From NCBI RefSeq assembly GCF_013315695.1, contig NZ_CP054353.1: a stretch of 64,000 bases of DNA. The stretch is one strand, 5' to 3'. Of this stretch, positions 3,052 through 43,648 are shown piece by piece; the stretch's first letter is position 1, and each line of letters opens with the position of its first letter. The notes below the pieces were generated by a model that ran no database searches, was not told where the DNA came from, and saw only the letters and a list, made by a program, of their open reading frames with translations. The position numbers were made by a program, and so were the translations under genes. Origin of the DNA: Escherichia coli (GTDB lineage Bacteria > Pseudomonadota > Gammaproteobacteria > Enterobacterales > Enterobacteriaceae).

Positions 3052-3528
<477 letters not shown>

Positions 3529-3622
3529 TTGTTATACCTCTTGAATATTCCTGATGGGGCAAGTCTTCACCCACCCCGGCTGTTCGGCCTGCCCGGCATA
3601 ACTCCTCACCGGGACCAGAAGC

Positions 3623-3656
3623 AAAAAAATACCGACCCGGGTACAGGTCCCAGGTC
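3623..3656 (-). terminator. Intrinsic terminator within the greA leader (GraL-type attenuator)
   Basis: Minus-strand RNA GACCUGGG-ACCUGUA-CCCGGGUC (8-bp stem with one G.U) followed by GGUAUUUUUUU; lies between the greA promoter region and the greA start codon. Confidence 0.6.
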
Positions 3657-3775
3657 AGCTACAATTCACATTTTGATAGTCATTTTACCCTGAAGTTCCC
3701 GAAGGGTCATCGTTTACTTTATAGGGCGTTGCGCCGTAGTATGACGGCTCGATTCCAGGTTGTTAGCGCGAGATT

Positions 3776-5209
3776 ATGCGATTTTCCAGATTTATCATCG
3801 GATTGACCAGCTGTATAGCGTTCAGTGTTCAGGCCGCAAATGTTGATGAGTACATTACTCAACTCCCCGCTGGTGCCAACCTTGCCCTGATGGTGCAAAA
3901 AGTCGGCGCGTCGGCCCCCGCTATTGATTACCACAGTCAGCAGATGGCGCTGCCCGCCAGCACGCAGAAAGTGATTACTGCGCTGGCGGCGTTGATTCAA
4001 CTCGGCCCCGATTTTCGTTTTACCACGACGCTTGAAACCAAAGGTAATGTGGAAAACGGTGTACTTAAGGGTGACTTAGTAGCGCGATTTGGTGCCGATC
4101 CGACGTTAAAACGTCAGGATATTCGCAATATGGTCGCGACTTTGAAAAAATCTGGCGTCAACCAAATCGATGGCAATGTGTTGATAGATACCTCCATTTT
4201 CGCCAGCCACGATAAAGCCCCCGGCTGGCCATGGAATGACATGACACAATGCTTTAGCGCTCCGCCTGCCGCCGCCATAGTTGACCGCAACTGTTTCTCC
4301 GTCTCGCTCTATAGTGCCCCAAAACCTGGTGATATGGCTTTTATACGCGTGGCATCTTATTACCCCGTTACGATGTTCAGCCAGGTACGCACCCTCCCCC
4401 GTGGTTCTGCCGAAGCGCAATACTGCGAGCTGGATGTGGTGCCAGGCGACCTGAACCGCTTTACGCTGACCGGATGCCTGCCACAACGTTCTGAGCCGCT
4501 CCCGTTGGCTTTTGCCGTGCAGGATGGTGCCAGCTATGCCGGGGCAATTCTGAAAGATGAGTTAAAACAGGCGGGTATCACCTGGAGTGGAACACTGCTG
4601 CGCCAGACTCAGGTTAACGAACCTGGAACGGTAGTTGCCAGTAAACAGTCGGCCCCGCTGCACGATCTGCTTAAGATTATGCTGAAAAAGTCAGACAACA
4701 TGATCGCCGATACGGTTTTCCGCATGATAGGCCATGCGCGCTTCAATGTGCCTGGAACATGGCGGGCCGGGTCGGACGCCGTGCGTCAGATCCTGCGCCA
4801 GCAAGCCGGTGTCGATATTGGAAATACCATTATTGCCGATGGTTCAGGGCTTTCGCGGCATAACCTGATTGCCCCCGCCACCATGATGCAGGTGCTGCAA
4901 TACATTGCCCAACACGACAATGAACTTAACTTTATCTCTATGCTGCCGCTGGCGGGCTATGACGGCTCTTTGCAGTACCGTGCAGGTCTGCATCAGGCGG
5001 GCGTGGATGGCAAAGTCTCAGCGAAAACCGGCTCGTTGCAGGGGGTATATAACCTGGCGGGATTCATTACCACGGCGAGCGGGCAACGAATGGCGTTTGT
5101 GCAATATCTTTCTGGCTATGCAGTAGAACCGGCGGATCAGCGTAATCGCCGTATTCCGTTGGTACGTTTTGAAAGCCGTTTGTATAAAGATATTTACCAG
5201 AACAATTAG
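3776..5209 (+). CDS. dacB: D-alanyl-D-alanine carboxypeptidase/endopeptidase PBP4
   Basis: 477-aa ORF MRFSRFIIGLTSCIAFSVQAANVDEYITQLPAGANLALMVQKVGASAPAIDYHSQQMALPASTQKVIT... (signal peptide plus active-site STQK). Confidence 0.95.
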   Translation: MRFSRFIIGLTSCIAFSVQAANVDEYITQLPAGANLALMVQKVGASAPAIDYHSQQMALPASTQKVITALAALIQLGPDFRFTTTLETKGNVENGVLKGDLVARFGADPTLKRQDIRNMVATLKKSGVNQIDGNVLIDTSIFASHDKAPGWPWNDMTQCFSAPPAAAIVDRNCFSVSLYSAPKPGDMAFIRVASYYPVTMFSQVRTLPRGSAEAQYCELDVVPGDLNRFTLTGCLPQRSEPLPLAFAVQDGASYAGAILKDELKQAGITWSGTLLRQTQVNEPGTVVASKQSAPLHDLLKIMLKKSDNMIADTVFRMIGHARFNVPGTWRAGSDAVRQILRQQAGVDIGNTIIADGSGLSRHNLIAPATMMQVLQYIAQHDNELNFISMLPLAGYDGSLQYRAGLHQAGVDGKVSAKTGSLQGVYNLAGFITTASGQRMAFVQYLSGYAVEPADQRNRRIPLVRFESRLYKDIYQNN

Positions 5210-8377: not shown

Positions 8378-9349
8378 ATGAATTTAGAAAAAATCAATGA
8401 GTTAACCGCGCAAGATATGGCGGGTGTTAATGCGGCAATCCTTGAGCAGCTTAATTCCGACGTCCAACTGATCAATCAGTTAGGCTATTACATCGTCAGC
8501 GGCGGCGGTAAACGTATTCGTCCGATGATTGCTGTACTGGCTGCACGAGCTGTTGGCTATGAGGGAAATGCGCATGTCACCATTGCTGCCCTGATCGAGT
8601 TTATCCACACGGCGACTCTGCTGCACGACGACGTTGTGGATGAATCAGATATGCGCAGGGGTAAAGCTACCGCCAACGCCGCATTTGGCAATGCCGCCAG
8701 CGTGCTGGTAGGCGATTTTATTTATACCCGCGCGTTCCAGATGATGACCAGCCTCGGTTCGCTCAAAGTGCTGGAAGTCATGTCAGAAGCCGTAAACGTC
8801 ATCGCAGAAGGTGAAGTTCTGCAACTGATGAACGTTAACGATCCGGACATCACTGAAGAAAACTACATGCGCGTTATCTATAGCAAAACCGCGCGTCTGT
8901 TTGAGGCTGCCGCGCAGTGTTCCGGGATTCTGGCTGGCTGTACGCCGGAGGAGGAGAAAGGCCTGCAGGATTATGGGCGCTATCTCGGCACTGCTTTCCA
9001 GTTGATCGACGATTTACTCGATTACAATGCCGATGGCGAACAGTTAGGTAAAAACGTCGGCGACGATCTGAACGAAGGTAAACCGACGCTGCCGCTGCTG
9101 CATGCAATGCATCATGGCACACCAGAACAGGCACAGATGATTCGTACCGCCATCGAACAGGGTAACGGTCGCCATCTTCTGGAACCGGTTCTGGAAGCAA
9201 TGAACGCTTGTGGATCTCTTGAATGGACGCGTCAGCGTGCTGAGGAAGAAGCAGACAAAGCCATCGCAGCGTTACAGGTGCTCCCGGACACCCCTTGGCG
9301 AGAAGCACTCATCGGCCTCGCGCACATCGCTGTTCAACGCGATCGTTAA
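8378..9349 (+). CDS. ispB: Octaprenyl diphosphate synthase
   Basis: 323-aa ORF MNLEKINELTAQDMAGVNAAILEQLNSDVQLINQLGYYIVSGGGKRIRPMIAVLAARAVGY...; polyprenyl synthase DDxxD motifs (LLHDDVVDESDMRRG, IDDLLDYNADGEQLGK). Confidence 0.95.
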   Translation: MNLEKINELTAQDMAGVNAAILEQLNSDVQLINQLGYYIVSGGGKRIRPMIAVLAARAVGYEGNAHVTIAALIEFIHTATLLHDDVVDESDMRRGKATANAAFGNAASVLVGDFIYTRAFQMMTSLGSLKVLEVMSEAVNVIAEGEVLQLMNVNDPDITEENYMRVIYSKTARLFEAAAQCSGILAGCTPEEEKGLQDYGRYLGTAFQLIDDLLDYNADGEQLGKNVGDDLNEGKPTLPLLHAMHHGTPEQAQMIRTAIEQGNGRHLLEPVLEAMNACGSLEWTRQRAEEEADKAIAALQVLPDTPWREALIGLAHIAVQRDR

Positions 9350-9576
9350 TCCCCTCCCCTCATCCCGCGCAGCGCGCGGGATGAGTCCAGTAAATTCCAT
9401 AAAAACACTTATTCAGCTCTATAACACCTGAAAAATAGGGCTGTACATCTTTATATATTCTGAATATTCACACTCTTTACAGGAACTTTTTAGAGCAATA
9501 GGCCATCAGGAGTATAGTGATGCTCGACAGAAGAAGTGTTCTGAATGAAAGCGACTAACTTAAGGAGTGAGGAAAG

Positions 9577-9855
9577 ATGGAAAGTAATTTCATTGACTGG
9601 CATCCCGCTGACATCATTGCGGGTTTGCGCAAGAAGGGAACGTCAATGGCGGCGGAATCTCGCAGAAATGGTTTGAGTTCCTCAACGCTGGCGAACGCAT
9701 TATCGCGCCCCTGGCCGAAAGGAGAGATGATTATTGCGAAAGCCCTGGGAACTGACCCCTGGATTATCTGGCCATCTCGCTACCATGATCCGCAGACCCA
9801 TGAGTTTATCGATAGAACGCAGTTGATGCGTAGCTACACTAAACCGAAAAAATGA
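9577..9855 (+). CDS. sfsB: Ner-like DNA-binding regulator SfsB/Nlp
   Basis: 92-aa ORF MESNFIDWHPADIIAGLRKKGTSMAAESRRNGLSSSTLANALSRPWPKGEMIIAKALG... Confidence 0.9.
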   Translation: MESNFIDWHPADIIAGLRKKGTSMAAESRRNGLSSSTLANALSRPWPKGEMIIAKALGTDPWIIWPSRYHDPQTHEFIDRTQLMRSYTKPKK

Positions 9856-9902
9856 GTGGTCTGGCGGTAGCCCCGCGAACGGGGCTGCCAGCTCTCAGAC
9901 AA

Positions 9903-11162
<1,260 letters not shown>

Positions 11163-11924: not shown

Positions 11925-12577
<653 letters not shown>

Positions 12578-13129
12578 TTATTTCGTTGTACCCACAGGTT
12601 CAGTGGTTTCATTATTACCTGGCGCAGCAGCTGGCGCATCGCCACTATTCTTATTGTCATCGCCTTTACTACCGTAAAGGAACTGACCAATGAGATCTTC
12701 CAGCACCATCGCAGACTTGGTGTCCTGAATTGTATCGCCATCCTTCAGGATAGCAGTCCCCAGTTCCGGGTCTTCAAAACCGACGTTTAATGCCAGATAT
12801 TGTTCCCCCAGCAGGCCGGAAGTACGAATGCTCAGCGAACTGGTATCAGGAATGTGGTTATAACGTTGTTCAATTTCCAGCGTTACGCGCGGCAGATAGG
12901 TTTTCGGGTCCAGCGTAATATCCGCCACCCGGCCCACAACAACGCCACCAATGCTGACCGGAGAGCGCGCTTTCAGGCCGCCAATGTTATCGAACGTCGC
13001 ATAAAGCGTATAGGTCGGTTCAGTACGTATGGACGTCACGTTCGCCGCCTTCAGGCAAACAAACAGCGCCGCCAGTAGTGCTGCTAATAAAAAGATACCC
13101 ACCCAAATTTCATTTTTTTTCGTTTGCAT
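12578..13129 (-). CDS. mlaD: MCE-domain phospholipid transport protein MlaD
   Basis: Trimmed to MQTKKNEIWVGIFLLAALLAALFVCLKAANVTSIRTEPTYTLYATFDNIGGLKARSPV... (183 aa). Confidence 0.93.
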   Translation of the reverse strand: MQTKKNEIWVGIFLLAALLAALFVCLKAANVTSIRTEPTYTLYATFDNIGGLKARSPVSIGGVVVGRVADITLDPKTYLPRVTLEIEQRYNHIPDTSSLSIRTSGLLGEQYLALNVGFEDPELGTAILKDGDTIQDTKSAMVLEDLIGQFLYGSKGDDNKNSGDAPAAAPGNNETTEPVGTTK

Positions 13130-13133
13130 GAAC

Positions 13134-14733
<1,600 letters not shown>

Positions 14734-14942
14734 AATTCACCCTTCGTCTTGCGTTGATTTTCTAAGCATGGCGCTCAATTTAACCTTGAACCCAACATAT
14801 TTACAGAATATTACCCGCCGTGGTTAGCGAAAGCTGGCATTTGTTTTACTTTTTAGCCGCATAAAGTCAAAATTAAGAATCCGTTACGGCTTTCTGAAAA
14901 TCTTCAGCGGACCGGCGAGTATACCTGAAGAAAGGACGTTAG

Positions 14943-15920
14943 ATGCTTTTAGCTACGGCACTGTTAATTGTTGGTTTACTTTTGGTCGTTTACAGTGCCG
15001 ACCGCCTGGTTTTTGCCGCGTCTATTCTTTGCCGAACCTTTGGCATCCCGCCGCTAATCATCGGCATGACGGTGGTCAGTATTGGTACATCGTTACCAGA
15101 AATCATCGTCTCGCTTGCCGCGTCTCTGCACGAACAACGCGATTTAGCCGTTGGTACAGCCCTCGGCTCAAACATTATCAATATATTGCTGATCCTCGGT
15201 CTGGCTGCGCTGGTTCGTCCTTTTACCGTCCATTCTGATGTTCTACGCCGTGAATTACCCTTAATGTTGTTGGTCAGCGTGGTGGCCGGTTCCGTACTCT
15301 ATGACGGACAACTTAGTCGAAGCGATGGTATCTTTCTCCTCTTTCTGGCTGTGCTATGGCTGCTGTTCATTGTTAAACTTGCACGTCAGGCTGAACGTCA
15401 GGGGACTGACAGCCTGACCAGAGAGCAGCTTGCAGAGCTGCCGCGTGACGGCGGATTGCCCGTCGCGTTTTTATGGCTCGGCATTGCGCTTATCATCATG
15501 CCAGTGGCCACGCGGATGGTGGTTGATAACGCCACGGTGCTGGCGAATTACTTTGCCATCAGCGAGTTGACGATGGGTCTGACGGCAATTGCTATCGGAA
15601 CCAGCCTGCCGGAACTGGCAACCGCAATAGCGGGGGTTCGCAAAGGTGAAAACGACATTGCGGTCGGAAATATTATTGGCGCAAACATCTTTAATATTGT
15701 CATCGTGTTGGGTTTACCCGCGCTGATAACGCCAGGAGAGATTGATCCACTGGCGTACAGTCGTGACTACAGCGTGATGTTGCTGGTGAGCATTATTTTT
15801 GCGTTGCTGTGCTGGCGGCGCTCCCCGCAATCGGGCCGTGGTGTAGGGGTATTATTAACTGGCGGATTTATCGTATGGCTGGCGATGTTGTACTGGTTAT
15901 CGCCAATACTCGTTGAATAA
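14943..15920 (+). CDS. yrbG: CaCA-family Na+/Ca2+ exchanger-like inner membrane protein YrbG
   Basis: 325-aa ORF with two GTSLPE alpha-repeat motifs (SIGTSLPEIIVSLAAS and AIGTSLPELATAIAG). Confidence 0.92.
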   Translation: MLLATALLIVGLLLVVYSADRLVFAASILCRTFGIPPLIIGMTVVSIGTSLPEIIVSLAASLHEQRDLAVGTALGSNIINILLILGLAALVRPFTVHSDVLRRELPLMLLVSVVAGSVLYDGQLSRSDGIFLLFLAVLWLLFIVKLARQAERQGTDSLTREQLAELPRDGGLPVAFLWLGIALIIMPVATRMVVDNATVLANYFAISELTMGLTAIAIGTSLPELATAIAGVRKGENDIAVGNIIGANIFNIVIVLGLPALITPGEIDPLAYSRDYSVMLLVSIIFALLCWRRSPQSGRGVGVLLTGGFIVWLAMLYWLSPILVE

Positions 15921-15933
15921 CTGGAAACGCATT

Positions 15934-16920
15934 ATGTCGCACGTAGAGTTACAACCGGGTTTTGACTTTCAGCAAGCAGGTAAAGAAGTCCTGGCGATTG
16001 AACGTGAATGCCTGGCGGAGCTTGATCAATACATCAATCAGAATTTCACGCTTGCCTGTGAAAAGATGTTCTGGTGTAAAGGGAAAGTTGTCGTCATGGG
16101 GATGGGGAAATCGGGGCACATCGGGCGTAAAATGGCAGCAACGTTTGCCAGCACCGGTACACCTTCATTTTTCGTCCATCCTGGTGAAGCCGCGCATGGT
16201 GATTTAGGCATGGTCACCCCACAGGATGTGGTGATTGCTATCTCTAACTCAGGTGAATCCAGCGAAATCACGGCCTTAATTCCAGTGCTTAAGCGTCTTC
16301 ACGTACCGTTAATCTGCATCACCGGTCGCCCGGAGAGCAGCATGGCGCGCGCCGCAGATGTGCATCTGTGTGTTAAAGTAGCGAAAGAAGCCTGTCCGTT
16401 AGGGCTGGCACCGACCAGCAGCACCACCGCCACGCTGGTTATGGGCGATGCCCTCGCTGTCGCGCTGTTAAAAGCACGCGGCTTTACTGCTGAAGATTTT
16501 GCGCTCTCACACCCAGGCGGCGCACTGGGTCGTAAACTTCTGCTGCGCGTAAACGATATTATGCATACGGGCGATGAGATCCCGCATGTTAAGAAAACGG
16601 CCAGTCTGCGTGACGCATTGCTGGAAGTTACCCGCAAAAATCTTGGTATGACTGTCATTTGCGATGACAATATGATGATTGAAGGCATCTTTACCGACGG
16701 TGATTTACGCCGTGTCTTCGATATGGGCGTGGATGTTCGTCAGTTAAGTATTGCCGATGTGATGACGCCGGGGGGAATACGCGTGCGCCCTGGCATCCTG
16801 GCCGTTGAGGCACTGAACTTAATGCAGTCCCGTCATATCACCTCCGTGATGGTTGCCGATGGCGACCATTTACTCGGTGTGTTACATATGCATGATTTAC
16901 TGCGTGCAGGCGTAGTGTAA
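15934..16920 (+). CDS. kdsD: D-arabinose 5-phosphate isomerase KdsD
   Basis: Trimmed to MSHVELQPGFDFQQAGKEVLAIERECLAELDQYINQNF...; SIS domain followed by tandem CBS domains (328 aa). Confidence 0.94.
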   Translation: MSHVELQPGFDFQQAGKEVLAIERECLAELDQYINQNFTLACEKMFWCKGKVVVMGMGKSGHIGRKMAATFASTGTPSFFVHPGEAAHGDLGMVTPQDVVIAISNSGESSEITALIPVLKRLHVPLICITGRPESSMARAADVHLCVKVAKEACPLGLAPTSSTTATLVMGDALAVALLKARGFTAEDFALSHPGGALGRKLLLRVNDIMHTGDEIPHVKKTASLRDALLEVTRKNLGMTVICDDNMMIEGIFTDGDLRRVFDMGVDVRQLSIADVMTPGGIRVRPGILAVEALNLMQSRHITSVMVADGDHLLGVLHMHDLLRAGVV

Positions 16921-16940
16921 AGATTCAAGGATAAACAACA

Positions 16941-17507
16941 ATGAGCAAAGCAGGTGCGTCGCTTGCGACCTGTTACGGCCCTGTCAGCGCCGACGTTATG
17001 GCAAAAGCAGAGAACATTCGTCTGCTGATCCTCGATGTCGATGGCGTACTGTCAGATGGCCTGATTTATATGGGCAATAATGGCGAAGAGCTGAAAGCGT
17101 TCAATGTTCGTGACGGTTATGGCATTCGTTGTGCGCTCACCTCTGATATTGAAGTCGCTATCATTACCGGGCGAAAGGCTAAACTGGTAGAAGATCGTTG
17201 TGCCACATTGGGGATCACTCACTTGTATCAGGGGCAGTCAAACAAACTGATCGCCTTTAGCGATCTGCTGGAAAAACTGGCGATTGCCCCGGAAAATGTG
17301 GCTTATGTCGGCGATGATCTCATCGACTGGCCGGTAATGGAAAAAGTGGGTTTAAGCGTCGCCGTGGCCGATGCGCATCCACTGTTGATCCCGCGCGCCG
17401 ATTACGTGACGCGCATTGCTGGCGGTCGTGGCGCAGTGCGAGAAGTTTGCGACTTATTACTCCTGGCGCAGGGCAAACTGGATGAAGCCAAAGGGCAATC
17501 GATATGA
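16941..17507 (+). CDS. kdsC: KDO 8-phosphate phosphatase KdsC
   Basis: 188-aa ORF with HAD motif LLILDVDGVLSDG. Confidence 0.94.
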   Translation: MSKAGASLATCYGPVSADVMAKAENIRLLILDVDGVLSDGLIYMGNNGEELKAFNVRDGYGIRCALTSDIEVAIITGRKAKLVEDRCATLGITHLYQGQSNKLIAFSDLLEKLAIAPENVAYVGDDLIDWPVMEKVGLSVAVADAHPLLIPRADYVTRIAGGRGAVREVCDLLLLAQGKLDEAKGQSI

Positions 17508-18079
17508 GTAAAGCCAGACGTTGGGTTATCATTGTGCTATCACTGGCGGTTCTGGTGATGATCGGCATTAATATGGCCGAAAAAGACGATACCGCCCAGG
17601 TGGTCGTCAACAACAATGATCCCACCTATAAAAGCGAGCATACGGACACGCTCGTCTATAACCCAGAAGGGGCACTAAGCTATCGATTGATTGCTCAACA
17701 CGTTGAATATTATTCCGATCAGGCCGTTTCGTGGTTTACGCAGCCGGTACTTACCACGTTTGATAAGGATAAAATCCCGACATGGTCCGTAAAAGCAGAT
17801 AAAGCCAAGCTGACCAATGACCGGATGCTCTATTTATATGGACACGTTGAAGTCAACGCACTCGTGCCGGACTCTCAACTTCGCAGAATCACGACGGATA
17901 ACGCGCAGATCAATCTGGTGACGCAGGATGTTACCTCTGAAGACCTCGTCACGTTATACGGAACAACATTTAACTCCAGCGGTCTGAAAATGCGCGGCAA
18001 CTTACGCAGCAAGAACGCCGAGCTGATTGAAAAGGTTAGAACATCCTATGAAATTCAAAACAAACAAACTCAGCCTTAA
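17504..18079 (+). CDS. lptC: LPS export protein LptC
   Basis: 191-aa ORF MSKARRWVIIVLSLAVLVMIGINMAEKDDTAQVVVNNNDPTYKSEHTDTLVYNPEG...; start overlaps kdsC stop (ATGA). Confidence 0.94.
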   Translation: MSKARRWVIIVLSLAVLVMIGINMAEKDDTAQVVVNNNDPTYKSEHTDTLVYNPEGALSYRLIAQHVEYYSDQAVSWFTQPVLTTFDKDKIPTWSVKADKAKLTNDRMLYLYGHVEVNALVPDSQLRRITTDNAQINLVTQDVTSEDLVTLYGTTFNSSGLKMRGNLRSKNAELIEKVRTSYEIQNKQTQP

Positions 18080-18605
18080 TCTTGTGCTTGCCAGCTCACT
18101 TCTGGCCGCCAGCATTCCGGCATTTGCCGTAACCGGAGACACTGATCAGCCGATCCACATTGAATCGGACCAGCAATCTCTTGATATGCAAGGCAACGTG
18201 GTTACCTTTACCGGTAATGTCATCGTCACCCAGGGCACCATCAAAATTAATGCCGACAAAGTGGTCGTTACCCGTCCGGGCGGCGAACAAGGTAAAGAAG
18301 TGATTGACGGCTACGGTAAACCGGCAACGTTCTACCAGATGCAGGACAATGGTAAACCCGTTGAAGGTCACGCTTCCCAGATGCACTACGAACTGGCAAA
18401 AGATTTTGTCGTTCTGACGGGTAATGCTTATCTGCAGCAGGTCGATAGCAACATTAAGGGCGATAAGATCACTTACCTGGTGAAAGAGCAGAAAATGCAG
18501 GCTTTCAGCGACAAAGGTAAGCGCGTAACCACCGTTCTGGTGCCGTCGCAGCTGCAGGACAAAAACAACAAAGGCCAGACCCCGGCACAGAAGAAGGGTA
18601 ATTAA
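18048..18605 (+). CDS. lptA: Periplasmic LPS transport protein LptA
   Basis: Trimmed to MKFKTNKLSLNLVLASSLLAASIPAFAVTGDTDQPIHIESDQQSLDMQGN... (185 aa); overlaps lptC 3' end. Confidence 0.94.
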   Translation: MKFKTNKLSLNLVLASSLLAASIPAFAVTGDTDQPIHIESDQQSLDMQGNVVTFTGNVIVTQGTIKINADKVVVTRPGGEQGKEVIDGYGKPATFYQMQDNGKPVEGHASQMHYELAKDFVVLTGNAYLQQVDSNIKGDKITYLVKEQKMQAFSDKGKRVTTVLVPSQLQDKNNKGQTPAQKKGN

Positions 18606-18611
18606 TTCGTT

Positions 18612-19337
18612 ATGGCAACATTAACTGCAAAGAACCTTGCAAAAGCCTATAAAGGCCGTCGCGTGGTAGAAGACGTCAGCCTGACCGTCAACTCCGGGGA
18701 AATTGTCGGTCTGCTGGGGCCAAACGGTGCCGGTAAGACCACCACTTTCTACATGGTTGTAGGCATTGTGCCGCGCGATGCGGGCAACATCATTATTGAT
18801 GATGACGATATCAGTCTGCTGCCTCTGCATGCACGCGCGCGCCGCGGTATCGGCTATCTGCCACAGGAAGCCTCCATTTTCCGTCGCCTCAGCGTTTACG
18901 ATAACCTGATGGCGGTACTGCAAATTCGTGACGACTTGTCTGCTGAACAACGTGAAGACCGCGCGAACGAGCTGATGGAAGAGTTTCACATTGAGCACCT
19001 GCGTGACAGCATGGGGCAGTCACTCTCCGGGGGTGAACGTCGCCGTGTAGAAATTGCCCGCGCACTGGCTGCGAATCCGAAATTTATTCTGCTCGACGAA
19101 CCGTTTGCCGGGGTTGACCCGATCTCGGTTATCGACATTAAACGCATCATTGAACACCTGCGCGACAGCGGCCTGGGCGTACTGATCACTGACCACAACG
19201 TGCGTGAAACACTGGCGGTTTGTGAACGCGCTTATATCGTCAGTCAGGGGCATTTGATCGCCCACGGCACGCCTACAGAAATCTTACAAGACGAACACGT
19301 TAAGCGTGTATACCTTGGGGAAGACTTCAGACTCTGA
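18612..19337 (+). CDS. lptB: LPS export ABC transporter ATPase LptB
   Basis: 241-aa ORF with Walker [10 protein letters not shown], signature LSGGERRR, Walker B ILLDEP. Confidence 0.95.
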
Positions 19338-19384
19338 TAGGGTAGAAGTTTGCGACGTTTTAGCAGGAGAGTACGATTCTGAAC

Positions 19385-20818
19385 ATGAAGCAAGGTTTGC
19401 AACTCAGGCTTAGCCAACAACTGGCGATGACGCCACAGCTCCAACAGGCAATTCGTCTGTTGCAGTTGTCGACGCTGGAACTTCAGCAGGAGCTACAGCA
19501 GGCGCTGGAGAGTAATCCGCTGCTTGAGCAAATCGACACTCATGAAGAAATCGACACCCGCGAAACGCAAGACAGTGAAACGCTGGACACCGCCGACGCG
19601 CTCGAACAAAAAGAGATGCCGGAAGAGCTGCCGCTCGATGCCAGTTGGGACACCATTTACACCGCTGGTACACCCTCCGGCACCAGCGGTGACTACATTG
19701 ACGACGAGCTGCCGGTCTATCAGGGCGAAACGACGCAGACCTTGCAGGATTACCTGATGTGGCAGGTCGAGCTGACACCGTTTTCCGACACTGACCGCGC
19801 TATTGCTACCTCTATCGTCGATGCCGTTGATGACACCGGTTATCTGACTGTCCCGCTGGAAGATATTCTCGAAAGTATGGGCGATGAAGAGATCGACATC
19901 GACGAGGTTGAAGCCGTCCTTAAGCGGATCCAACGGTTTGATCCGGTCGGTGTGGCGGCAAAAGATCTGCGTGACTGCCTGCTGATCCAACTCTCCCAAT
20001 TCGATAAAACCACGCCGTGGCTGGAAGAGGCCAGACTGATTATTAGCGATCATCTCGATCTGTTAGCCAATCACGACTTCCGCACTTTAATGCGCGTCAC
20101 GCGTCTGAAAGAAGATGTGCTGAAAGAAGCCGTCAATCTGATCCAGTCGCTCGATCCGCGCCCCGGGCAGTCGATCCAGACTGGCGAACCTGAGTATGTC
20201 ATTCCAGATGTGCTGGTGCGTAAGCATAACGGTCACTGGACGGTAGAACTCAACAGTGACAGCATTCCGCGTCTGCAAATCAACCAGCACTACGCCTCGA
20301 TGTGCAATAACGCGCGCAACGATGGTGACAGCCAGTTTATCCGCAGCAATCTGCAGGATGCCAAATGGTTGATCAAGAGTCTGGAAAGCCGTAACGATAC
20401 GCTACTGCGCGTGAGTCGCTGTATCGTTGAACAGCAGCAAGCCTTCTTTGAGCAAGGTGAAGAATATATGAAACCGATGGTACTGGCCGATATCGCCCAG
20501 GCTGTCGAAATGCATGAATCGACGATATCTCGCGTGACCACGCAAAAATACCTGCATAGTCCACGAGGCATTTTTGAACTGAAGTATTTCTTTTCCAGTC
20601 ACGTCAATACCGAGGGCGGCGGCGAAGCTTCCTCCACGGCGATTCGTGCGCTGGTGAAGAAATTAATCGCGGCGGAAAACCCAGCGAAACCGTTGAGCGA
20701 CAGCAAGTTAACCTCTTTGCTGTCGGAACAAGGTATCATGGTGGCACGCCGCACTGTTGCGAAGTACCGAGAGTCTTTATCCATTCCGCCGTCAAACCAG
20801 CGTAAACAGCTCGTTTGA
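19385..20818 (+). CDS. rpoN: RNA polymerase sigma-54 factor RpoN
   Basis: 477-aa [52 protein letters not shown]...; C-terminal RpoN box [10 protein letters not shown]. Confidence 0.97.
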
Positions 20819-32200: not shown

Positions 32201-33852
32201 AGCCGGGTGAAGGTGGTCAGTTACCGGGTGATAAAGTCACTCCTTACATTGCCAAACTGCGCTATTCGGTGCCGGGCGTGACGCTGATCTCCCCGCCGCC
32301 GCACCACGATATCTACTCTATTGAGGATTTAGCGCAGCTGATTTTCGACCTCAAGCAGGTCAATCCAAAAGCGATGATCTCCGTGAAGCTGGTTTCCGAA
32401 CCGGGCGTAGGCACCATCGCGACTGGCGTGGCAAAAGCTTATGCCGATTTAATCACCATCGCAGGCTATGACGGCGGCACCGGCGCAAGTCCGCTTTCAT
32501 CGGTGAAATACGCAGGCTGTCCGTGGGAGCTGGGGCTTGTTGAAACCCAACAGGCGCTGGTTGCCAACGGCTTGCGTCACAAGATCCGTTTGCAGGTTGA
32601 TGGCGGCCTGAAAACCGGCGTTGATATCATCAAAGCGGCGATTCTCGGCGCAGAAAGCTTCGGCTTCGGCACTGGCCCGATGGTGGCGCTCGGCTGTAAA
32701 TATCTGCGTATTTGCCATCTGAACAACTGCGCGACGGGTGTTGCAACTCAGGATGACAAACTGCGTAAGAATCACTATCACGGCCTGCCGTTCAAGGTGA
32801 CTAATTACTTTGAGTTTATCGCACGTGAAACCCGCGAGCTGATGGCACAGCTGGGGGTAACGCGTCTGGTGGATCTGATTGGTCGCACCGACCTGCTGAA
32901 AGAGCTGGACGGTTTCACCGCCAAACAGCAGAAACTGGCGCTGTCGAAGCTGCTGGAAACTGCCGAGCCACATGCAGGTAAGGCACTCTACTGCACCGAA
33001 AACAACCCGCCGTTTGATAACGGCCTACTGAACGCGCAGTTGCTGCAACAGGCAAAACCGTTTGTCGATGAACGCCAGAGCAAAACCTTCTGGTTCGATA
33101 TCCGCAACACCGATCGTTCTGTCGGCGCGTCGCTTTCAGGCTATATCGCCCAGACGCACGGCGATCAGGGGCTGGCTGCCGATCCGATCAAAGCATACTT
33201 CAACGGCACCGCAGGCCAGAGCTTCGGTGTGTGGAACGCGGGCGGCGTGGAACTGTATCTGACCGGCGATGCTAACGACTATGTCGGTAAAGGCATGGCG
33301 GGCGGCTTAATTGCCATTCGTCCTCCGGTTGGCTCAGCCTTCCGCAGCCATGAAGCAAGCATTATCGGCAACACCTGCCTGTATGGCGCGACCGGAGGTC
33401 GTCTGTATGCCGCAGGCCGCGCGGGTGAACGTTTCGGCGTACGTAACTCCGGTGCTATCACCGTGGTAGAAGGCATTGGCGACAACGGCTGTGAATATAT
33501 GACGGGCGGTATTGTCTGTATTCTGGGTAAAACCGGCGTTAACTTCGGCGCGGGCATGACCGGCGGCTTCGCTTACGTTCTCGATGAAAGCGGCGATTTC
33601 CGCAAACGCGTTAACCCGGAACTGGTCGAGGTCTTAAGCGTTGACGATTTGGCGATCCATGAAGAGCATCTGCGTGGTCTTATCACCGAGCATGTGCAGC
33701 ATACCGGTTCCCAGCGCGGTGAAGAGATTCTGGCGAACTGGTCAACCTTCGCCACGAAATTCGCGCTGGTTAAACCGAAGTCCAGTGATGTAAAAGCACT
33801 GCTGGGTCACCGTAGTCGTAGCGCAGCAGAGTTGCGCGTGCAGGCGCAGTAA
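29299..33852 (+). CDS. gltB: Glutamate synthase (NADPH) large subunit
   Basis: 1517-codon ORF from second in-frame ATG ([20 protein letters not shown]...); Ntn amidotransferase start ...[14 protein letters not shown] and Fe-S domains. Track ORF begins 5 codons upstream at 29284; exact start uncertain. Confidence 0.95.
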
Positions 33853-35283
<1,431 letters not shown>

Positions 35284-35466
35284 GCTCTGCCTCAGCGCCG
35301 CCTTCTCAGAAAAGAGTCGGCGCTGAAATTCTCCTTTCGTTCTGGAAAGCGCCTCGCATAATCTGAAGAAAACCAATGTAATACGCACATCTGGATTGTT
35401 ACCGGCAGATGCCCGGCGTATAGCTGATTCCATTATTCAACACTGCGCCATATGAAGGGACAGATA

Positions 35467-36566
35467 ATGGAATCGCTCTCAGAAGGAACCACAGCAGGCT
35501 ACCAGCAAATCCACGACGGCATTATTCATCTGGTCGATAGCGCCCGGACGGAAACGGTACGTAGTGTTAACGCGTTAATGACCGCCACATACTGGGAAAT
35601 TGGCCGACGAATTGTCGAATTTGAACAAGGTGGCGAGGCCAGGGCTGCGTATGGTGCGCAGCTAATCAAGCGACTATCAAAGGATTTACGTCTAAGGTAT
35701 AAGCGTGGGTTTTCCACCAGGAATTTATGGCAGTTTAAGAATTTTTATATTTGTTTTCAACGAATTGAAATTGTGCAGACACTGTCTGCACAATTCGCCA
35801 GACACTATCTGGCGAATCTTGCCATTTAGCGCAACTGGCCAAATCCTTCCCCCTGCCCTGGTCCACTTACGTCCGTTTGCTTTCTGTTAAAAACGCTGAC
35901 GCTCGTAGCTTTTATGAGAAAGAGACACTCCGCTGTGGCTGGTCTGCTCGTCAGCTCGAACGGCAAATTGCGACCCAATTTTATGAGCGGACACTACTGT
36001 CACATGACAAATCAGCCATGCTGCAACAACACGCTCCTGCCGAGACGCATATTCTTCCGCAACGGGCGATACGCGATCCCTTTGTGCTCGAATTTCTGGA
36101 ATTGAAAGATGAATATTCAGAATCCGATTTTGAGGAGGCGCTGATCAACCACCTGATGGATTTCATGCTGGAACTTGGGGATGATTTTGCCTTTGTTAGT
36201 CGACAGCGAAGGTTACGCATTGATGACAACTGGTTTCGTGTCGATCTGCTGTTTTTCCACCGCCGTTTACGCTGCCTGCTAATCGTCGATCTAAAAGTGG
36301 GCAAATTCAGCTATAGCGATGCCGGACAGATGAATATGTATCTCAACTACGCCAAAGAGCACTGGACGCTACCGGATGAAAATCCGCCCATCGGTCTGAT
36401 TCTCTGTGCAGAGAAAGGAGTCGGAGAAGCGCATTATGCACTGGCTGGTTTGCCTAACACCGTTCTGGCGAGTGAATATAAGATGCAACTACCTGATGAA
36501 AAACGACTCGCGGATGAACTCGTTCGAACACAGGCGGTGTTAGAGGAAGGCTATAGACGCCGTTAA
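35467..36566 (+). pseudogene. yhcG: yhcG (DUF1016 / PDDEXK-nuclease-like), apparently frameshifted into two ORFs
   Basis: N-terminal ORF (MESLSEGTTAGYQQIHDGIIHLVDSARTETVRS...) stops at TAG 35827..35829; C-terminal homologous frame (...WSTYVRLLSVKNADARSFYEKETLRCGWSARQLERQ...) is open from 35769 to TAA 36564..36566 in a different phase. The phase change falls inside tandem palindromes at 35770..35817. It may be a genuine strain pseudogene or a sequencing error. Confidence 0.6.
35770..35817. repeat. Tandem pair of 25-bp palindromes inside yhcG (copy A 35770..35794, copy B 35793..35817)
   Basis: A = ATTGTGCAGACA-C-TGTCTGCACAAT (perfect); B = ATTCGCCAGACA-C-TATCTGGCGAAT (one mismatch); copies overlap by 2 nt, period 23 bp. 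Confidence 0.85.
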
Positions 36567-36581
36567 TTTCAGCAGTTTCGA

Positions 36582-36606
36582 ATTCTCCAGACACTGTCTG
36601 GAGAAT
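36582..36606. repeat. Third member of the same palindrome family, between convergent yhcG and yhcH
   Basis: C = ATTCTCCAGACA-C-TGTCTGGAGAAT (perfect 12+1+12); same CAGACA-C-TGTCTG core and ATT/AAT ends as A and B, with complementary substitutions in the variable triplet. May double as a terminator hairpin but lacks a strong U-tract. Confidence 0.85.
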
Positions 36607-36625
36607 CTTTAAAACGAACTAAGTT

Positions 36626-37958
<1,333 letters not shown>

Positions 37959-37962
<4 letters not shown>

Positions 37963-38648
37963 AGCACCGCCTTTTTCATCGCTGTGTTGTACCACTGACA
38001 AATGTGTTCAAGACGCGTAATGGCAGAACCGACCGTCACCGCCCACGCGCCGTGGCGCATCGCATCCGCCGCCTGAGCAGGCGTGTTGTAACGCCCTTCG
38101 GCAATCACTCGACATCCGGCGTCGCTCAACGTTTTCACCAGCGCCAGATCCGGCTCTTCTGGCGTTTCAGGCGTGGTATAGCCAGAAAGCGTAGTGCCAA
38201 TAATTTCGGCTCCCAGCTTTTGGCATGCCAGGCCGTCTTCCGGCGTGGAACAGTCGGTCATCGCCAGTAAACCGTGATGGTGAATACGTGCCAGCAACGT
38301 TTCAACAGGCACCGGACGCGGGCGGTCGGTGCCGTCAATGGCGATAATGTCCGCGCCCGCCTGCGCCAGCGCATCAACATCTTCAATATAGGCCGTGATG
38401 CGTACCGGAGAATCCTCCAGATCTCGTTTCACAATCCCGATAATTGGCACGCTCACTACCGCACGCGTGGCTTGCAGATTTGCCACACCTTCGATGCGAA
38501 TGGCAACCGCGCCCGCCTGCTCTGCCGCTAATGCCATGGCTGCGACGATTTCGGGTTTATCGAGCGGGCTGTCAGGAACCGGCTGGCAGGAGACAATCAG
38601 GCCACCGTTAGCAGCGATTTTTTGATCCAGTTGTGCAAGTAACGACAT
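37959..38648 (-). CDS. nanE: N-acetylmannosamine-6-phosphate 2-epimerase
   Basis: Trimmed to [54 protein letters not shown]... (229 aa). Confidence 0.94.
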
Positions 38649-42101: not shown

Positions 42102-43648
42102 TCTGTAAGGTCAGTGTGATTAACATCATCAGTGACATCCTATCACAGGATTGAAAGTAGGGGGAAATGGCGGGGTTTTCTCTTTGTGCCTCATCATTAC
42201 TATAATTAACTGAATAATTAACTATTGCGAAAAATTAATGTAACGCAGATAAAAACATCCCGACTGAATTATTCATAAGACTATTAACAAGTATTATGAA
42301 TATTATGAATGTGTTCTTACAAAATAATCATAAGCGCATATTTTTTAATGAAAAATCACCTCATCTACAATTAAAAACACGACATCCGCACCATAAATAG
42401 CCTTGCAAAAAATATAACATCATTGTTTTCAATCTGCCGTTTATGGGATTGACCGTTTTCTTTTGACACGGAGTTCAACAATGTTCGGCATAATTATATC
42501 TGTCATCGTATTAATTACGATGGGCTATTTGATCCTGAAAAACTACAAACCTCAGGTGGTGCTGGCTGCCGCAGGTATCTTCCTGATGATGTGCGGTGTC
42601 TGGTTAGGGTTCGGTGGTGTGCTCGATCCCGCCAAAAGCAGCGGCTACTTGATCGTCGATATTTATAATGAAATCCTGCGCATGCTGTCCAACCGCATTG
42701 CCGGATTGGGGCTGTCGATTATGGCAGTGGGTGGTTATGCCCGCTATATGGAGCGCATAGGGGCCAGTCGCGCGATGGTGAGCTTGTTAAGCCGCCCGTT
42801 AAAACTCATTCGCTCGCCGTATATTATTCTGTCGGCAACTTACGTCATCGGCCAAATCATGGCGCAGTTTATTACCAGCGCCTCCGGTCTGGGTATGTTG
42901 CTGATGGTCACCTTATTTCCGACGCTGGTGAGTCTGGGAGTAAGTCGCCTCTCTGCGGTGGCGGTTATCGCAACCACGATGTCCATTGAGTGGGGGATTC
43001 TGGAAACGAACTCCATTTTTGCTGCCCAGGTCGCAGGAATGAAAATTGCCACTTACTTCTTCCACTACCAGCTTCCGGTCGCCTCTTGCGTCATTATCTC
43101 GGTGGCGATCTCCCACTTTTTCGTGCAACGCGCTTTCGACAAAAAAGATAAAAATATCAATCACGAACAGGCAGAGCAAAAAGCTCTCGATAATGTCCCG
43201 CCGCTCTATTACGCCATTTTACCGGTGATGCCGTTAATCCTGATGCTCGGCTCGCTGTTCCTTGCCCACGTCGGGCTGATGCAGTCAGAACTGCATCTGG
43301 TGGTGGTGATGTTACTGAGTTTGACGGTGACGATGTTTGTTGAGTTCTTCCACAAGCATAACTTGCGCGAAACAATGGACGATGTGCAGGCGTTTTTTGA
43401 CGGCATGGGTACGCAGTTTGCCAACGTGGTAACGCTGGTGGTCGCGGGTGAAATATTTGCGAAAGGCTTAACGACGATTGGCACTGTCGATGCGGTTATC
43501 AGGGGGGCGGAGCATTCTGGTCTGGGCGGTATTGGCGTGATGATTATTATGGCGCTGGTCATTGCCATTTGTGCCATTGTGATGGGCTCAGGCGGTGATG
43601 CTGCCAACTTACTGATTTAGTGTATGATGGTGTTTTTGAGGTGCTCCA

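Follow-up and report, generated by a model that had tools for sequence, protein, structure and literature searches.

The short gltD–yhcG junction of Escherichia coli is probably older than the gltF-yhcADEF island of K-12

Chromosomal hotspots with variable contents between conserved core genes exist in E. coli. In K-12 MG1655 the genes downstream of the glutamate synthase small subunit gene are arranged in the order gltD, gltF, yhcA, yhcD, yhcE::IS5, yhcF, yhcG and nanQ, and 7,210 bp lie between the gltD stop codon and the yhcG start codon. Of the island genes, gltF encodes a DUF1120 subunit, yhcA a chaperone and yhcD an usher. Klebsiella aerogenes was reported by Goss and colleagues in 2001 to have no gltF, and the gene was reported to be unnecessary for nitrogen regulation. 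The Yhc chaperone-usher locus has been described as 'sporadic' and under-represented, with the choice between an ancient remnant and a recent acquisition left open (Wurpel et al. 2013, PMC3559732), and yhc loci have been reported in phylogroup A only (Del Canto et al. 2017, PMC5216030); BL21(DE3) is reported to be without gltF beside its gltBD genes (Kim et al. 2018, PMC6150544). That gltF and the yhc genes are missing from most E. coli is thus already published, and what is added here is the direction of change alone. The locus is considered here in the window, by which we mean the whole 64-kb stretch of E. coli DNA that was analyzed, where 183 bp, and not 7,210 bp, lie between the gltD stop and the yhcG start.

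The gltD–nanQ locus in the window

The gltD gene (33865..35283, + strand; from the ORF list) is intact, encodes a glutamate synthase small subunit of 472 aa with 99% identity to K-12 GltD, and ends in a TAA stop codon at 35281-35283. The ATG of yhcG is at 35467, and the ORF coordinates define between the two an intergenic region of 183 bp (35284..35466), which we refer to as the short junction. It contains two parts. The first is a 54 bp segment specific to the short-junction allele (35286..35339, + strand) that has no counterpart in the K-12 locus and includes a conserved GC-rich stem-loop (35292..35326, + strand) 9 nt past the gltD stop. The second is the conserved yhcG 5′ region (35340..35466, + strand), recognized by its identity among Escherichia copies and presumed to supply a promoter and RBS. 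The yhcG pseudogene itself (35467..36566, + strand) corresponds, by its translation, Pfam and RefSeq, to a nuclease with DUF1016_N and YhcG_C PDDEXK domains, and repeat comparison and folding reveal two in-frame palindromic repeat units within it (35769..35818) with the core CAGACnnTGTCTG. Between yhcG and the convergent nanQ there is a 28 bp palindrome (36580..36607), GAATTCTCCAGACACTGTCTGGAGAATC, which presumably forms a bidirectional terminator hairpin; nanQ (yhcH; 36626..37090, - strand; identified from the ORF list, RefSeq and tblastn) is the right-hand conserved flank of the variable locus.

There is no gene in the 183 bp interval, and the sole overlapping entries in the ORF list are out of frame and run into gltD. 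Neither an IS copy nor an IS remnant is present in the interval, and gltD and the 5′ end of yhcG are both complete. Searches by tblastn with K-12 proteins match GltD, YhcG, NanQ and NanK in the expected order within the window, and homologues of GltF, YhcA, YhcD, YhcE and YhcF are found nowhere in its 64 kb. The initial annotation, made from the sequence alone, had placed yhcG directly after gltD at a distance of 183 bp with no ORF, no IS remnant and no obvious repeat scar, had noted the absence of gltF and yhcA/D/E/F, and had set this against a K-12 gene order with gltF and the yhc genes between gltD and yhcG; the ORF coordinates and the tblastn searches with the five K-12 proteins bear out the first two observations, the 183 bp are indeed free of a repeat scar, and that order agrees with MG1655, in which gltD is not beside yhcG.

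The genome of E. coli isolate AF3 (NZ_OZ547117.1) differs from the window at 2 of 16,801 positions, and its RefSeq annotation gives the order gltB, gltD, a frameshifted PDDEXK-nuclease gene, nanQ, nanK, nanE, nanT, nanA and nanR. On the 3′ side of nanR the window contains a dcuC-family C4-dicarboxylate transporter gene (42481-43593) that is cut off by IS1, whose terminal inverted repeat begins at 43594; RefSeq marks this gene as partial in the near-identical genome.

Comparison with the K-12 locus places the breakpoints precisely. Homology between the window and K-12 ends at 35285 (TAAGC), 2 bp past the gltD stop, and restarts at 35340, which corresponds to position 9200 of the K-12 locus. The best matches of the intervening 54 bp (35286-35339) in the K-12 locus are merely 7–16 nt long, as expected by chance, and K-12-type genomes match positions 57–183 of the intergenic region only. 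These 54 bp are absent from the K-12 locus, and the window junction therefore cannot be obtained by deleting K-12 sequence. The features that would mark a deletion scar (an IS remnant, truncated flanks, or microhomology at the endpoints without extra sequence) are not seen in the window; in particular, there is no microhomology between the K-12 endpoints, which the initial annotation had proposed as the place to look for it.

The sequence to the right of the breakpoint is itself unusual in K-12. Positions 35340..35466 of the window are only 73% identical to K-12, against 97% over the first 240 coding bases of yhcG. The 128 bp upstream of yhcG in K-12 (K-12 locus 9200-9327) have 71–77% identity to every short-junction Escherichia copy, whereas the window is 94–98% identical in the yhcG upstream region to the copies of BL21, O157, SCPM and E. 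albertii, and 70% identical to that of Pseudocitrobacter vendiensis. The K-12 version is thus roughly as distant as that of Pseudocitrobacter and looks as if it came in with the island, from a donor in which yhcF already stood beside yhcG; this pattern suggests that the K-12 yhcG upstream stretch was imported with the island from a divergent donor.

The arms of the stem-loop, CAGCGCCG...CGGCGCTG, lie in the 54 bp segment directly past the gltD stop, as is characteristic of the short-junction allele. A hairpin had initially been annotated at 35293..35320; it is present but slightly longer, with stems at 35292-35300 and 35318-35326 that form a GC-rich 9 bp helix (MFE -19.1 kcal/mol), and the folding z-score of 35292-35326 is an unremarkable -1.5. 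An 8 bp stem core does not vary among eight sequences, which represent six Escherichia lineages and P. vendiensis, save for one G-U pair in P. vendiensis, and RNAalifold identifies no compensatory pairs in this gltD-proximal hairpin among the same eight sequences. Covariation at an extra ninth pair, C-G in E69 and T-A in E. whittamii, was noticed by eye and set aside as a single event, too weak to count. The GC-rich stem is conserved, but it is not followed by a U-tract, nor was it called in the terminator consensus scan; by inference it is probably a 3′ stem-loop or terminator of gltBD. On the + strand of the 183 bp there are no matches to sigma-70 or terminator consensus sequences, and a search of Rfam at E <= 1 over 35150-36750 returns no match and hence no described RNA in the junction. 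The roles of the junction would seem to be limited to terminating gltBD transcription at the stem-loop and supplying the 5′ region of yhcG.

Junction types in E. coli and related genera

Among 5,426 complete E. coli genomes, a sample biased to clinical isolates and K-12 laboratory derivatives, the short junction (called where the intergenic region is matched at >=80% coverage) is present in 3,138 (58%), with matches at about 90–100% identity. Carriers include O157:H7, O103:H2 12009 and BL21(DE3). The short junction is therefore the commonest state, and K-12 represents a minority. At least 80% of the K-12 island segment is present in 1,120 of the 5,426 genomes and some part of it in 1,293, of which 1,288 match K-12 at >=99% identity; the K-12-type right junction is found in 1,147, so that the island occurs in 21–24% of genomes overall. 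In a further 947 genomes (17.5%), including ST131, 'Seattle 1946' and others, gltD adjoins nanQ without yhcG, and other gltD–nanQ contents account for a few per cent. Phylogroup assignments rest on strain names and on published work and were not obtained by typing.

The less common contents are varied. BL21-type genomes have a 5′ fragment of yhcG followed by a small transposase gene; in BL21(DE3) (locus 3468-4269) this is a 306-bp 'transposase' gene standing in place of the 3′ two-thirds of yhcG, and the same arrangement is seen in several unrelated-looking strains of the spread sample. In O158:H23 CFIAFB20140388 the gltD–nanQ interval (locus 12517-19957) carries a five-gene cluster encoding SWIM zinc finger, DUF5691, AAA ATPase, DUF5682 and VWA proteins, none of which is matched by PADLOC; two hypothetical genes and a short yhcG fragment are also present in this interval. 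IS1-mediated losses of the island can be recognized in the K-12-type strains L73, S163-2 and PSS-08-2, and in these IS1 copies and a 5′-truncated yhcG remain.

The flanks of the locus were compared using window positions 33186-35285 and 36626-38625 against K-12, BL21 and ST131. In many 200-bp bins the 3′ end of gltB-gltD and nanQ-nanK differ by 3–6% between lineages, which seems high for E. coli core genes, and this divergence would fit frequent recombination in the neighborhood of the variable interval.

Outgroups were drawn from one scan of species-representative genomes carrying the gltD 3′ end, which yielded 22 loci; E. fergusonii and Shigella are not among the genomes covered by the outgroup and E. 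coli samples. The window-type junction, with the 54 bp, the hairpin and the yhcG upstream region, is present in E. albertii NBRC 107761, E. whittamii and Escherichia sp. E1V33, and also in the E. coli-labelled representatives E69 and SCPM-O-B-8794. P. vendiensis has an alignable but diverged junction followed by a full yhcG, and Citrobacter amalonaticus has a decayed yhcG directly 3′ of gltD. The question posed initially, of which lineages share the short junction, is thus answered by the majority of the E. coli sample together with other Escherichia and P. vendiensis. In none of the 22 species representatives is gltF or a close homologue of yhcA, yhcD or yhcF located downstream of gltD. In Escherichia sp. 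MOD1-EC7003, Kluyvera, other Citrobacter, Enterobacter kpr-6, a Pseudocitrobacter MAG and others, gltD adjoins nanQ. With yhcG missing from the interval in many Enterobacteriaceae and in MOD1-EC7003, the term 'ancestral' holds for the short junction within Escherichia but not necessarily deeper.

The K-12-specific segment has several properties of an acquired island. Its GC content, with IS5 excluded, is 43.1%, compared with 56.7% for gltBD; its distribution is patchy; and it is missing from the outgroup loci. The annotation of the segment includes neither an integrase nor a tRNA gene, att-type direct repeats are not found, and the only repeat that flanks it is the 28 bp palindrome, copies of which lie past gltD and past yhcG. 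In the 2.1 kb of gltB-gltD that precede the stop codon, K-12 and BL21 are 98–100% identical, although they differ in junction state, and the replacement therefore appears to be recent and to have occurred in a shared background. The K-12 stretch following the palindrome copy past gltD (K-12 locus ~2159-2200) was considered as a remnant of the yhcG 3′ end and rejected (blastx E about 0.03, not significant); the same stretch is common to K-12 and a Pseudocitrobacter MAG.

The yhcG pseudogene and the 28 bp palindrome

Compared with the alleles of E7-1N7 and E69, the window yhcG is without 13 bp (ACCCCCACAATTC) at 35796/35797, a deletion that shifts the reading frame and leads to a stop codon at 35827-35829. 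The deleted bases lie between two copies of CACAATTC, at the boundary of the repeat units. Pfam places DUF1016_N (PF17761) and YhcG_C (PF06250) on two separate ORFs of the window and not in one intact frame, and RefSeq flags yhcG as 'frameshifted' in the near-identical NZ_OZ547117.1; this frameshift had been overlooked when the junction was initially annotated. The K-12 YhcG (K-12 locus 9328-10455) is intact and is matched by PADLOC to the candidate single-gene defense family PDC-S02 (E = 2e-131). The O157 allele, which encodes 349 aa, is intact as well. Across lineages yhcG has often been inactivated independently, by frameshifts, IS1, the transposase gene or palindrome deletions.

The 28 bp palindrome has the consensus GAATTCnCCAGACnnTGTCTGGnGAATy. 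The repeat stretch at 35769-35818 folds at -30.2 kcal/mol (z = -6.2), and the 28 bp palindrome at 36580-36607 has z-scores of -3.2 on the + strand and -5.2 on the - strand. Within yhcG the in-frame units encode repeats of the type ..EIxQTxSxEF.., and the number of units differs between alleles, with a single unit in O157, two each in SCPM, E69 and the window, three in K-12 and four in P. vendiensis. There are only two palindrome sites in the 64-kb window. Membership in a genome-wide family of REP/RPE-like elements was considered and rejected, as the palindrome occurs at a median of two and a maximum of six places per genome. Copies in the K-12 locus are at 2131-2158, ~9637-9731 and 10468-10495, and in K-12 and ST131-type strains a palindrome copy is found past gltD instead of the hairpin of the window. 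The K-12 segment that comprises the island and yhcG therefore has a copy on either side.

Two other arrangements bear on how yhcG may have been lost. The ST131-type palindrome is identical at 27 of 27 positions to internal repeat 1 of the O157 yhcG. The sequence to the right of this copy corresponds to that found downstream of yhcG, and the ST131-type hairpin may therefore be a remnant of yhcG. In E. albertii NBRC 107761, yhcG is cut after about 122 codons, ~500–600 nt past the gltD 3′-end match, and the cut point is a hybrid palindrome of which the left half is like an internal yhcG repeat and the right half is the downstream hairpin; to judge from these sequences, it looks like a palindrome-to-palindrome deletion caught halfway. 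Together, the identity of the ST131-type copy and the E. albertii hybrid suggest that recombination between palindromes erodes yhcG. A broader proposal, that the palindrome is a local recombination substrate and that yhcG, with or without the island, behaves as a cassette, is doubtful. If it were true, the changes in unit number, the 13 bp deletion, the E. albertii truncation and the ST131-type loss would all be palindrome-to-palindrome events, and the bidirectional gltD/nanQ hairpin of ST131-type strains would be an exapted piece of yhcG coding sequence. That the YhcG nuclease, as a candidate PDC-S02 defense protein, acts on the palindrome is speculation. Palindrome-driven decay of yhcG would be a small-scale evolutionary detail and does not represent a new kind of system.

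Direction of change and comparison with described loci

Synteny, breakpoints, distribution in the population and in outgroups, and base composition can all be read directly from the genomes compared. The window very probably carries the older and commonest gltD–nanQ allele, with gltF-yhcADEF absent since the island was never inserted in this lineage. This allele would read gltD, 183 bp with their own stem-loop, yhcG, the palindromic hairpin and nanQ. The junction sequences, the outgroups and the divergent K-12 yhcG upstream region favor acquisition of Yhc, and the direction of change that we infer is accordingly that of an older short junction and an acquired island. K-12 and its relatives would have gained about 7.1 kb of low-GC DNA in place of the resident sequence, with the left limit of the exchange 2 bp beyond the gltD stop and its right limit ~25 bp before the yhcG ATG. 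Import would most likely have proceeded by homologous replacement, the donor being a divergent genome in which the island already stood beside a yhcG gene.

The initial annotation offered an ancestral state and a clean deletion as alternatives, and only the ancestral state is upheld. A deletion would require that an ancestor with a K-12-type gltF-yhcADEF lost the island precisely and was left with 183 bp. The K-12 order from which such a loss would start had been given correctly, and the island can be lost, as the partial deletions in some K-12-type genomes demonstrate; however, those losses keep IS1 and a truncated yhcG, whereas the window junction holds 54 bp foreign to the K-12 locus, the K-12 endpoints are without microhomology, and the 127 bp preceding yhcG show 27% divergence from K-12. 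Since E. albertii, E. whittamii and P. vendiensis share this type of junction, as do 58% of the E. coli sample, a clean deletion is scarcely credible. The assumption that K-12 represents the norm, implicit in the initial annotation, is misplaced, for it is K-12 that bears an insertion, low in GC and nearly clonal, that has been reported from no phylogroup but A.

Two other histories concern the short junction itself. The window lineage could once have been ST131-type or K-12-type and have regained the short junction by homologous recombination with other E. coli, in which case the state, though old within E. coli, would not have come to this lineage by vertical descent. The locus is mosaic: the yhcG N-terminus exists as two allele types that ignore species lines, one shared by the window, E69 and P. 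vendiensis and the other by K-12, BL21, SCPM and O157. The flanks differ by 3–6% between lineages, the window yhcG upstream region is 98.4% identical to that of O157 and 97.6% to that of E. albertii, but over the whole intergenic region the window and the largest group of short-junction genomes are ~95% identical. Nonetheless, no recombination breakpoint confined to the window lineage is directly apparent, and the genomes nearest to the window are identical across the locus; we regard such a replacement as very unlikely, and under it, too, the window allele would never have contained the island. It is also unlikely, if less so, that a yhcG-less, ST131-like arrangement of gltD, hairpin and nanQ was ancestral in Escherichia and that the short junction is an inserted yhcG cassette that later spread. 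The juxtaposition of gltD and nanQ in Kluyvera, Citrobacter, Enterobacter kpr-6, the Pseudocitrobacter MAG and MOD1-EC7003 is in keeping with this history, as is the match of YhcG to PDC-S02, a candidate defense family, such genes often being mobile. Set against it are the yhcG junction in five of the six non-K-12 Escherichia species representatives, the ST131-type hairpin and right flank, which are as expected of a remnant left by yhcG deletion, and E. albertii, in which what looks like a palindrome-to-palindrome deletion is seen midway.

With the short junction as the older allele, K-12 is not the reference state at gltD–yhcG, and the gltBDF operon and cryptic Yhc cluster represent a minority condition with an acquired island. 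The absence of gltF-yhc should not be scored as a deletion by annotation pipelines or readers. The short junction is otherwise an ordinary majority allele, of little wider consequence.

The interval resembles the known hotspots in that at least five different contents are found between gltD and nanQ: yhcG; the island together with yhcG; nothing; a yhcG fragment with a transposase gene; and the SWIM/DUF5691/AAA/DUF5682/VWA cluster. Unlike hotspots, it has no integrase, tRNA gene or att-like site that can be seen, and a literature search for gltD–nanQ as a named hotspot found nothing relevant. The ST131-type locus shares the gltD and nanQ flanks of the window, and gltF and yhcADEF are missing from both; it differs in having no yhcG and only 67 bp, with one 28 bp palindrome, between gltD and nanQ. 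The K-12 gltBDF-yhcADEF locus (Yhc, a beta-class chaperone-usher system) has the same flanks as the window, namely gltB, gltD, yhcG, nanQ and nanK, but places gltF, yhcA, yhcD, yhcE::IS5 and yhcF between gltD and yhcG, so that the window contains no Yhc locus; the K-12 hairpin past gltD is the 28 bp palindrome, unlike the stem-loop of the window. E. coli B/BL21(DE3) is like the window in having the 54 bp segment, the hairpin and the yhcG upstream region directly past gltD, and differs in that the 3′ part of its yhcG is replaced by a small transposase gene, whereas the yhcG of the window is full length but frameshifted.
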